19,068 nt of DNA from a virus (Duplodnaviria; Heunggongvirae; Uroviricota; Caudoviricetes): IMG/VR virus record IMGVR_UViG_2529293141_000023. One strand, written 5' to 3'. Positions 631 through 3,600 of this stretch are shown one piece after another. Numbering within the stretch: position 1 is the stretch's first letter; every line of letters begins with the position of its first letter. The position numbers are program-made.

Positions 631-3600
631 TAACTCGGTGGCCAGTTTTTGTTGACCACTTCATCGGCGGCATTCAGGAGGATGAAAGACATTGTTTCGT
701 CATAGTCCATCGGCACACCGCGAGCCTCGAACATCCCCTGGTAGGCCAGAACAACGGAGACCTGAAGGTTTGCATGAGTGGTGCGGTTCTTTTCGGTGTA
801 CATGTTCACGGCGGCTTTCAACTCTAAAGCCTGCGAGGCGTCCATGACCTCCAGCTTATCGATCAGGCGTTCATTCTGTCGCATGATTCCATAGGCTGGC
901 TGTTCGGTACGGTTCAGGGCTTCGGTGATAGCCTCGACCTCTGCGGTCTTGTTCAGCTTCTTAAAACGGCTCCGTAACTCAATCAGGGATTTACGGGAAG
1001 TCAGACGCTGATCGACACGCCAGATAAGGGTGTCAACGTCGCTGTAATCGATTTTACTCATAGGGCTTGCAATCTCCGGGCAGAACATTTATCATTAAAT
1101 TGGGGAAATTGTACTCAATTACAACCCCGCATCACGTTGATTATTTTATCATGATTTCAATAGATTGACAATGGATTATTTGCGGCTGGGTTGATTTATC
1201 AAATCATGCGTATAACGAGCTGTAAGCGGTTCTGAGGGCCACCCTGTGGTGGTAGGGTCACCTGAGAGGAGATAACGCCATACAGCGCGTTAGGTATTGC
1301 CCTGTGGCGTCCGTGGGTATCACTCCGCGCCGGGCACCCCACCCCGCTGCCAGGTGTCACGGTTTCCCAAAGGCAGAAACAGAAACCGTGTTGCGGTTCT
1401 GGTTCTGCATTGCCCAAAGGAGGCTAACCCGTTGGGCGTAGCCTGTCCCAAGATCAGGAACGGATGTTCCTTACCTAAAGAGTCTTGCTTAATTAACAAT
1501 CAATTAATACTCACAATCTCTTTAAGGTCTTGCCCTGGTCCTGAGGGTTCTAGTTTTATCTGGTGTGGGTAGGTTTATCTATAGTCTTATTGTGTCTGAT
1601 TTCTTTACACCACGGTGTCGGGATTCTTTACACCAGATGTCACCTGCTGTCTGATTTCTTTACACCTCTGAAGATTCCCCGGTTTGTCGTGGCGTCTGAT
1701 TTCTTTACACCGGGAGATGAGCCAACAGGCTCGACTCCACATGTGGGAAACAGGCCCCGGCCTAAAACCTGGACCCGGACGGGTGAGCGTAGCGAAAGGT
1801 TTTAAGAGGCTAGAATTTAAGAGAGAAATAATTAAGAGCCTGAGCGATTAATTATTGAACGATTAAATTATAAGATTAATAAGACCGTAGCCCGGACGGG
1901 CGAGCGGAGCGAGGTCTTATATATCTATTATTGTCTAGTGTGTCCCAAAAGACACATAGCCCCCCCTGAGTCAGACCACCCACAAACCCACCGTAATCAC
2001 CCCCCACAAATTCATCTGATACACATCACGACGTAGAAGTCAACATATACCTGATCATTTTGTTGCAATTTTGCATAAATTATTGTAAAATATAGACATA
2101 GCGTGATGTAGTGAGCATGTCTACTCGGGATCTGGAAACCCGCCGTTTTGCAACTCATCGCGTCACGCTGTGTACAGAGTCGCAACGTGTGCTTAGCCGA
2201 GCAATCAAGATCTGTACGAGTGAGCCGGGCGGCTTCTCCTCCGCTCTGGTTCCTCACCCTGTGAGCCTTGAACAACTCCACTTGCCAGGGTTCACAGTGT
2301 GATGTTCCTCTCAAGATATCACGCGAGATCTCCTTATCTCAAAAGCCTCCCCGAAAGGGCACAATCCAACGGCGTGGTAACCGTGTGGATGATTAACCGT
2401 TTACGGTTTCCGGCGTGTTTCAGTTCACGCCGTTTTCCTCTGGTGTCTTGTCGATGAGTCGCCACAGGAAAACTCAAGCGATAAATCTCCTCTTATTAAG
2501 TCCACCCGGTAACCTTCCCGGGTTCTTTTTTTTGTGGGTATTTGCCAAAAGGTTGGCGCTATTGGCGTGACGCCGCCAGGGGCGGCAAGTATCCACACAA
2601 AAAGGGTTTACCCTTTCCCTCCACAGAGGTGTGGGATCGGGGCTGGTGATGGGGTCCATGATGGACCTCTGATCCTATTCGCTGCCTCTCTCCTGTATCT
2701 CTAATATCCGATCTGGAGTCTCCCCAACTCCCGGATTCTCCGGTGCAACGCCGGGTATCACTGCGCCCCTGTGCGCTTCTCCACTCCTCAAGGAAAATTC
2801 AATGAATGCTACTCCTCGTTACCCTGTGACCCAGGGCGACATCATCGTGAGCTATGCTAGCTCACTTTTTGACCGCACCGAAGTAACCGCCCCGGATGGT
2901 CTCCCCGATCACGTCGATTGTGGCGACATCCTGGACAGCAAAACTTTTGCCCTGTATGACTCATCCGCCGCTGACGCTGGCAAGCCGATCATTAACCTGT
3001 CCAACATGGACGCCGACGGCAAGCCCAAAACGCTGGTCATTGTGGATCGCCACGTAGTGATCACGGATTTCAATCTGAAAGCCAAAGATGAGGCATCCAA
3101 GAAAGCCGCATTAGAAGCGCTGACCGCATCGGGTGAGATTCGCCTGGCTGTTAATTCTGATTTCCGTAAATCTCAAGGAGAGTAATCACATGGCTGTGGA
3201 TTTCAAAAGTTTTGAACGTCTCGACACGGTAGCGGCTATCAAGTCCGTTCCCGCTGGTAATCACCTGATCTCTGATCTGGGTATCTTCACTGGTGTTAAC
3301 TCCACTACCCCACGCGCTCAGGTTGTGGATATTGTGGAAAGCGCTGTTGCAGAGCTTGAGCAGGTCTCCCGCTACGGCACCGAAGTAAACAGCATCAAGA
3401 TGGATAAAACCATCCTCCGTGATCAGGAGATCCCACACTACGCAACAGAATCCGATGTGAAAACCGAAGATTGGCAATCCTTGGTAAGCCCGGCTAACCC
3501 GGATCAGGCTCAGGCGGTTGCGTCCGTCATTGCCGCTAAATCCGTGCGTATGCGTGATCACCACCTGGAGACTGTGGAAGCGACTTTAGCCCGCGCCCTG

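Follow-up and report, generated by a model that had tools for sequence, protein, structure and literature searches.

A large structured RNA upstream of the capsid genes of a putative phage satellite

Satellites must hold their capsid-remodeling genes silent until a helper phage comes, and the known solutions to this problem are proteins or very small RNAs. The CI RNA of phage P4, which pairs with seqA and seqC, has a length of about 69 nucleotides (nt), and the 6S RNA of phage lambda has 194 nt. In the capsid-forming phage-inducible chromosomal islands (cf-PICIs), the head module comprises capsid, protease or scaffold, portal, head-tail connector, and small terminase genes. Here, we analyzed a stretch of DNA of 19,068 nt (IMG/VR virus record IMGVR_UViG_2529293141_000023, Caudoviricetes; the whole stretch is referred to as the window), in which an RNA of approximately 435–600 nt with about 25 covarying helices occupies that control point, between a sigma-70-type promoter and an intrinsic terminator and directly upstream of capsid genes. 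An earlier reading of the window from its sequence (the original prediction) had likened this promoter-leader-terminator unit to the lambdoid late units that are read through by the antiterminator Q. The regulatory layout is a known one, and the locus represents a new variant of it with an unusually elaborate RNA at its center.

The promoter-RNA-terminator unit

The unit consists of the following features, all on the + strand, and the architecture proposed in the original prediction, with promoter, leader, and terminator directly upstream of a capsid-like operon starting at 2802, held in our analysis:

2063–2091 (+), sigma-70-type promoter: -35 TTGCAA at 2063–2068, 17-bp spacer, -10 TAAAAT at 2086–2091
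2098–2534 (+), structured non-coding RNA of ~435 nt: a chain of 12–13 hairpins in the window copy
2504–2534 (+), intrinsic terminator: 6-bp GC-rich stem, 8-nt loop UAACCUUC, UC, and eight U
2526–2606 (+), conserved long helix of 21 predicted pairs: 2526–2546 pairs with 2583–2606
2535–2801 (+), distal leader: 267 nt from the terminator to the start codon, with conserved hairpins

Relatives of the unit were collected from E. coli genomes, from a Pectobacterium genome and viral contigs matching a DNA pattern of the conserved hairpins, and from metagenomes by alignment of the capsid protein; further ones were contigs with distant capsid homologs from Pantoea, Pluralibacter, and sequencing-run assemblies. 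The true relatives retrieved by the hairpin pattern were one Pectobacterium genome and three viral contigs, and single matches in Lachnospiraceae and Flavobacteriaceae were discarded as chance. A scan of species genomes for exact peptides of the capsid protein gave no match, and relatives identified by this protein were confined to Enterobacterales. The final set comprised 23 distinct leader sequences, 22 of them spanning the promoter region and some just 45–50% identical to the window.

The promoter at 2063–2091 matches 9 of the 12 consensus positions, and transcription would start near 2098. Scanning the whole window returned 20 promoter-like sites (21.6 expected) and 40 terminator-like sites (20.4 expected), and neither the promoter nor the terminator, taken alone, is above chance. 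Both were considered real because they are conserved at aligned positions in the relatives. The -35 element, 17-bp spacer, and -10 element recur at the same aligned position in 22 out of 22 sequences, with 8–11 of 12 matches and mostly with an extended TGn motif; in the most distant relatives the promoter reads TTGACA-17-TGATAAAAT. Promoters of the same type (TTGC..-17-TGnTAAAATA) precede structural genes of the myophage CR3, to which we return below. The terminator hairpin (ACCCGG/CCGGGT at 2504–2523, -10.1 kcal/mol) is followed by a U-run ending at 2534 and is one-directional, with no T-run after the hairpin on the minus strand. A hairpin plus U-run was found at the aligned position in 22 of the 23 relatives, with arms that vary in sequence (CCCGG, CCCCG, and ACCCGC), a stem that is kept, and an energy that in most of them lies between -8 and -12 kcal/mol. 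The UCUUUUUU following the hairpin is nearly invariant, and the stem is weakened in two near-identical relatives. In one relative the scripted match fell on an unrelated T-run, and its alignment does show the terminator. Both elements are thus present where the original prediction had placed them.

The spacer of the promoter (aligned with 2069–2085) contains in most relatives, including L004, L005, L006, and L024, a perfect 13-bp palindrome, AATGATAATCATT, which matches the Fur-box consensus at 14–15 of 19 positions; iron control of the RNA is possible in part of the family. In the window copy the match is 11 of 19, which is chance level, and a Fur box was rejected there.

The segment between promoter and terminator is a structured non-coding RNA under strong selection for its secondary structure. 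The minimum free energy of 2098–2540 is -168.5 kcal/mol, compared with -128 ± 5.5 kcal/mol for shuffled sequences (z = -7.4; none of 100 shuffles was as low), and the opposite strand gives z = -2.9. The versions of the relatives extend over 440–600 nt. RNAalifold applied to 17 sequences yielded 80 consensus pairs, 37 of them with compensatory changes, and a fuller consensus contains 161 pairs in 25 helices. In the latter, 91% of the cells are paired, against 39–44% when the partners are slid by 1–3 columns, and 70 pairs have changes on both sides, against 25–33 for slid partners; none of 500 shuffles reached the observed value. At many positions of the consensus G-U is the commonest pair type, which fits the + strand only, as the other strand would have A-C mismatches.

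These data bear on the alternative that the conservation reflects a function of the DNA itself, as an origin, a packaging site, or inverted repeats bound by a protein. The adjoining region 1593–1944 does look like DNA of this kind, with iterons, an AT-rich stretch, and a helper-like 87-bp element, and the repeat formed by the terminator U-tract and its downstream partner (see below) is an inverted repeat in the DNA too. However, the strand asymmetry of the folding and the prevalence of G-U pairs argue against this alternative, as do the ~25 local covarying hairpins, typical of RNA and not of protein-binding DNA, and the conserved promoter and one-directional terminator that flank the segment. 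We consider it very improbable.

The leader could also have been conserved for a small protein, as an alternative in the original prediction had it. A 63-codon open reading frame (ORF) with a GTG start is indeed present at 2111–2302 in the window, but it is not conserved: distant relatives have no ORF in the region, relatives show insertions or deletions that are not multiples of three (for example, one of 14 nt), and tblastn fragments of the ORF lie in different frames in the closest relative. In addition, no Pfam match was found, and the substitutions keep base pairs, not codons. The small-protein explanation was rejected as exceedingly improbable.

Searches for known RNAs were negative. The whole window gave no match to Rfam 15 at gathering scores, including the models for C4/CI antisense RNAs, T-box, GOLLD, ROOL, HEARO, and CsrB; the region 600–6700 gave at E values up to 5 four chance-level matches, none biologically plausible; and a tRNA/tmRNA search of the window found none. 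When the whole 1.7-kb gap containing the leader was compared with phage genomes by blastn, the leader was never matched, just the 87-bp element mentioned above. Nor did a covariance model built on the 3' domain of the leader match CR3, the Q-bearing island described below, or other loci, so the RNA does not derive from the helper. A T-box-like reading was considered on account of an invariant UGGU apical loop (2375–2378) that could pair with a tRNA 3' end, the helper having 18 tRNAs, and it was set aside on account of the distance of 130 nt between loop and terminator and of the unmatched Rfam T-box model. A second candidate RNA further upstream (1102–1565, with a promoter-like site at 1067–1095 and a terminator-like site at 1532–1548) was dropped, its folding z being just -1.1.

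With respect to sequence composition, CUCC/UCUCC motifs are enriched 2–4 fold in the leaders and distal leader (2098–2801 and the corresponding regions of relatives), and of 11 leaders tested, 10 lack GGAG or have it at reduced frequency. The UCUCC motif resembles an anti-Shine-Dalgarno sequence, and several of these motifs lie in predicted hairpin loops, the terminator loop included, as read from a single-sequence fold. A repeat search revealed one long-range complementary pair, 2150–2160 with 2452–2462, which is outside the conserved consensus structure.

Read-through and the role of the RNA

The genes downstream of the unit, called capsid-like in the original prediction, were found to resemble head decoration and major capsid genes and form a short rightward operon:

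2802–3185 (+), lambda gpD-like head decoration protein of 127 aa, encoded first in the operon (PF02924, E = 1e-4, below the Pfam cut-off)
3190–4209 (+), major capsid protein of the lambda gpE family, 339 aa (PF03864, E = 4e-18)
4273–4473 (+), conserved short ORF of 66 aa that closes the operon (hypothetical protein in E. coli EEC_W5 and EC24)
4486–4509, bidirectional terminator after the small ORF

In the distal leader, which separates these genes from the terminator, the consensus has 64 pairs, 28 of them with compensatory changes, and a small hairpin lies beside the AAGGA ribosome-binding site (~2790). The long helix at 2526–2606 is made by the terminator U-tract and the next ~13 nt (GUGGGUAUUUGCC), which pair with GGCAAGUAUCCACACAAAAAG about 40 nt downstream. 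It covaries (alignment columns 3–23 with 58–84), GUGG/CCAC being replaced by GAGU/ACUC in the Pantoea relative L031. Since this conserved helix can form in read-through transcripts only, such transcripts appear to be under selection. Moreover, neither the window nor 13 of 15 relatives showed a sigma-70-type promoter between the terminator and the start codon of the operon (2802 in the window), also when the threshold was relaxed, which suggests that expression of the operon (2802–4473) depends on read-through from the promoter at 2063.

Based on these results, we propose, with about even confidence, that the unit serves as the front-end regulator of a satellite capsid operon, that is, a structured leader with an internal terminator that gates the capsid genes. 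In an uninfected cell, the polymerase would start near 2098 and mostly stop at the terminator, so that the capsid genes would be silent and a stable structured RNA would be released. Upon infection by a helper, most likely a Certrevirus-type myophage, some factor would permit read-through into 2802–4473. This factor, whether protein or RNA, might be made by the helper or by the island and may bind to the leader in its folded state. The long helix with the U-tract would then form in the read-through transcript and could be a processing or stabilizing site.

Alternatively, the RNA might be the product of a stand-alone gene of ~435 nt with a job other than downstream control. Such an RNA might target mRNAs of the helper or the host in trans through its exposed UCUCC loops, sequester a protein, or have a part in particle assembly, and expression of the capsid genes would then come from an unrecognized helper-dependent promoter or from leaky read-through. 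This alternative, which we regard as possible though somewhat doubtful, is favored by the stronger fold up to the terminator and by the mosaic nature of the locus. The distal leader folded alone gives z = -1.7, against z = -7.4 for the promoter-terminator segment. The leader of the window is similar to that of E. coli EC24 (65–84% identity per 100 nt over 2030–2529), whereas the capsid genes of the two are ~40–55% identical; compared with E. coli SCU-316 the pattern is the reverse, the capsid genes of the window resembling SCU-316-type islands and the leader not. Leader and capsid modules have therefore different histories, with a recombination breakpoint between ~2530 and 2830, just past the terminator. 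Conservation of the terminator everywhere, the enrichment of CUCC/UCUCC with depletion of GGAG and the position of several of these motifs in loops, and the precedents of the P4 CI RNA and of SviR, a small RNA of the phage-inducible chromosomal island-like elements (PLEs), also fit an independent RNA. On the other hand, the gating role is favored because position and orientation are fixed, the capsid operon being directly preceded by the RNA, oriented alike, in all relatives, because the search revealed no promoter belonging to the capsid genes themselves, and because a conserved helix that exists in read-through RNA only includes the U-tract. For an RNA acting on its own, moreover, no target or partner was identified, and the covariance model of its 3' domain gave no match in CR3. 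The two roles are not mutually exclusive, and both the P4 CI RNA and the lambda 6S RNA are products of terminated leaders.

Several points weigh against the gating model. Besides the difference in folding strength on both sides of the terminator and the separate histories of the two modules, an alternative pairing that would compete with the terminator stem as an antiterminator was sought by eye and none was conserved or convincing. A helper-specific promoter of a type other than sigma-70 in 2535–2801 could escape the scan. The start site, the efficiency of termination, and the read-through are deduced from the sequence, the assignment of the helper is suggested by shared sequences, and the tape-measure equivalent of the E. 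coli island L001 has just a weak match in CR3 (36% over 83 aa).

More tentatively, the RNA may represent a new class of large non-coding RNA in satellites of Certrevirus, either as a helper-sensing leader that disables its own terminator or with a role in trans or in the structure of the particle. For the latter roles, its UCUCC loops could silence the capsid messages of the helper, or the RNA could aid the assembly of small capsids. A fold that senses the helper would constitute an RNA-based infection sensor of a new type, and an RNA of this size with a role in trans would rank with the larger regulatory RNAs known from bacteria.

Tandem islands, orphan Q and probable helper

The window contains more than one element, namely, an insertion sequence copy and two islands, with the following features outside the unit and its operon:

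1–663, IS911 copy, 99.8% identity to the copy in Salmonella phage SEN22
1593–1711, four 19-bp iterons (TGTCTGATTTCTTTACACC) beside an AT-rich stretch, found by a repeat search
1847–1944, non-coding element (87 bp), 83–89% identity to a Certrevirus intergenic element
6564–6581, attachment (att)-type junction between the capsid island and the Q-bearing island, an 18-bp copy of the tRNA-Gly 3' end
8218–8242 (+), terminator abutting the 3' end of Q
8256–8654 (-), Q, 132 aa (PF06530, E = 2.5e-50)

Positions 664–6581 correspond to the right-hand part of an island of E. coli EEC_W5 (L001; 99.8% identity), which is inserted at the 3' end of tRNA-Gly adjoining actS, and 6564–19068 to a different island of E. 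coli JNEC-KY174 (99.9% identity) at the same tRNA locus. The two BLAST matches share exactly 18 bp (6564–6581), and the same bases are the tRNA-Gly 3' end in L001. The capsid island occurs without the Q island in EEC_W5, LR-29-1, and others, and the Q island without the capsid island in many E. coli genomes, mostly Shiga-toxin-producing by strain name. In EEC_W5 and LR-29-1 the promoter-RNA-terminator unit has the very sequence seen in the window. The locus is, accordingly, two unrelated islands in tandem at tRNA-Gly, not one element. On the left the capsid island of the window is broken by the IS911 copy, which overlaps the 3' end of the ORF at 630–1088 by ~34 bp. In JNEC-KY174, yet another integrase-bearing element lies on the far side of the Q island.

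The original prediction had placed the unit and Q in the same element. That Q lies on the opposite strand, some 6 kb away and lacking a late promoter of its own, was correct; its assignment to the same element was wrong, because the islands join at the 18-bp repeat and each occurs alone. Q is 87% identical to the Q protein of the Shiga toxin 1 (Stx1) phage VT1-Sakai, in which the annotated late promoter, qut, and terminators are immediately 3' of Q. The similarity of the Q island to Stx-phage DNA ends at 8272, before the phage pR'/qut, and the Q of the island is therefore an orphan.

This arrangement, together with the likeness of the unit to the lambda pR'-6S-tR' layout of promoter, leader, terminator, and structural genes, had suggested a Q-dependent late unit, in which a qut site at the promoter would allow Q, supplied by the neighboring island 5.7 kb away or by a lambdoid helper, to bring about read-through of the terminator. 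The search for a qut-like element in the promoter and early leader gave chance-level similarity to the cognate pR'/qut of VT1-Sakai: in local alignments of 2051–2150 and of the promoter found in the majority clade (L004 type), 49 and 309 of 500 shuffles, respectively, scored as high or higher. Inspection of the first ~25 transcribed bases for a promoter-proximal pause (a -10-like hexamer) showed nothing obvious. By tblastn, Q matched just the Q island itself (L002) and VT1-Sakai and had no match in the capsid-island relatives or in the 149-kb genome of CR3, and the elements that the capsid island shares with phages are from Certrevirus, not from lambdoid phages. Furthermore, a mechanism that operates through promoter DNA and a proximal pause leaves the selection on a fold of 435–600 nt unexplained. 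Thus, neither Q of the separate island acting in trans on the 2063 unit nor the Q of a helper phage driving the capsid genes, the two routes contemplated in the original prediction, found support, and it is very unlikely that Q controls the capsid unit.

The orphan Q could act in trans on the late promoter of a resident Stx prophage, and hence on toxin expression; it is common in Shiga-toxin-producing E. coli and may deserve a study of its own. The island that carries it is P4-like or PICI-like and contains genes for a P4-type integrase, a DUF927 primase, a single-stranded DNA-binding protein, ProQ/FinO-like and PerC-like proteins, and Q. Two other features of this island were recorded. A 415-codon ORF (15756–17003, minus strand) has a weak N-terminal match to the Rha domain (E = 6e-5) and is unannotated in the 99.9%-identical RefSeq genome, where two small genes on the + strand are called (YlcI/YnfO-like and a hypothetical protein). 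At 9448–9614 there is a series of four or five TGCGCA-N6-TGCGCA palindromes that overlap one another and have a T-run after each; they scored as terminator-like and in appearance are more like repeated protein-binding sites or an origin.

Complete relatives of the capsid island have ~13.5 kb, several independent contigs measuring 13.3–13.7 kb, and E. coli EC24 is one strain in which the island is intact. They encode an integrase, a tape-measure-domain protein of ~700 aa, a small Phage_phiTE_211-domain protein, and helix-turn-helix proteins, followed by a constant gene-free gap of ~2 kb and then by the decoration and major capsid genes. The iterons, the AT-rich stretch, and the RNA unit all lie in this gap, which amounts to ~15% of the island. 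Genes for a portal, a protease, or a terminase were not found, and the gene lists of the complete relatives are without portal or terminase domains. The integrase, replication, and tape-measure genes of these relatives are outside the window, if the copy of the window has them at all. At the position of the iterons the relatives have different repeat sequences, as one would expect of an origin whose initiator is specific to the element, and 1593–1711 is the probable replication origin of the island. The integrase with its tRNA-Gly att site, the iterons, the size of 13.3–13.7 kb, and the components matching Certrevirus point to a small integrative phage satellite. A literature search for a satellite family with these features found nothing relevant, and the family is apparently undescribed.

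With regard to the helper, the element at 1847–1944 matches 24 Certrevirus-like phages, including CR3, CR8, CR9, PBES 02, phiTE, and CB7; in CR3 it is found in the divergent gp253-gp254 intergenic region. Between the window and L003, whose islands are otherwise diverged, the element is 97–98% identical, and it is a candidate for a packaging or regulatory signal copied from the helper. A partial second copy is present at 1763–1795. The 14,455-bp sequence L038 (PV358085.1, "Enterobacter phage SS-2025", unverified) was considered as a packaged relative and rejected, its proteins showing no similarity to those of the island; it carries the 87-bp element.

Similarities to CR3 also concern proteins of the satellite. 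A 704-aa protein of one relative is 34% identical over 395 aa to the tape-measure protein gp020 of CR3 (E = 2e-49) and also matches both of its ends, and is ~110 aa shorter (704 vs 812 aa). A 115-aa island protein matches the N-terminus only of CR3 gp004, whose gene lies between the portal and head-decoration genes (the tape-measure and gp004-like genes are located at 389–2850 in L033 and at 13482–15584 in L001). The satellite may be one that alters tail length as well as capsid size. The order of decoration and capsid genes mirrors that of CR3 head decoration gp005 and major capsid gp006, and the major capsid protein of the window is 20% identical to gp006 (pairwise E = 1e-5). Taken at the sequence level, these similarities suggest that the helpers are probably Certrevirus-type myophages, not lambdoid phages.

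Comparison with known systems

The unit shares with the lambda pR'-6S-tR'-Q late unit a constitutive sigma-70 promoter and a terminated leader before virion genes that must be read through. It differs in that no Q gene lies beside the promoter and no similarity to qut was found, and in that no Q homolog was found in the probable Certrevirus helper. The leader is also twice as long as lambda 6S and has a conserved elaborate fold of a kind not required by the Q mechanism. The immunity system of P4, with its P_LE leader and CI RNA, is likewise a constitutive structured leader in which premature termination silences genes and gives rise to a stable RNA product. However, no similarity to it was detected in sequence or in Rfam, the repeat search, which returned the one long-range complementary pair given above, showed no repeated complementary boxes of its kind, and P4 gates a replication operon, whereas the unit described here would gate capsid genes. 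The put sites of HK022, the EAR element, and the lambda nut sites resemble the leader as early structured RNAs upstream of terminators that have to be passed for transcription of long operons. These elements have 35–120 nt and one or two hairpins, in contrast with ~25 helices over 440–600 nt in the leader; the leader matched no family of Rfam 15, and we do not claim that the leader RNA modifies the polymerase.

As an element, the capsid island resembles the cf-PICIs, P4 with Sid and Psu, the Staphylococcus aureus pathogenicity islands with CpmAB, and the PLEs in being small, with an integrase, an origin, capsid-determining genes of its own, and an apparent dependence on a helper. It has decoration and major capsid genes and not the complete head module of the cf-PICIs. 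Compared with capsid-remodeling satellites in general, it adds a shortened tape-measure homolog and a protein mimicking the N-terminus of CR3 gp004, the phages that it resembles are the large Certrevirus myophages, and ~15% of it is a gene-free region of 2 kb that contains the RNA. Finally, GOLLD, ROOL, HEARO, OLE, and raiA have in common with the RNA of this island a length above 400 nt, numerous covarying helices, a mobile or phage-related carrier, and the lack of an assigned function. The RNA of the capsid island differs in that it matches none of these Rfam families in 600–6700, E values up to 5 included, is limited to satellites of Enterobacterales, and has a fixed place as the 5' leader of a capsid operon.

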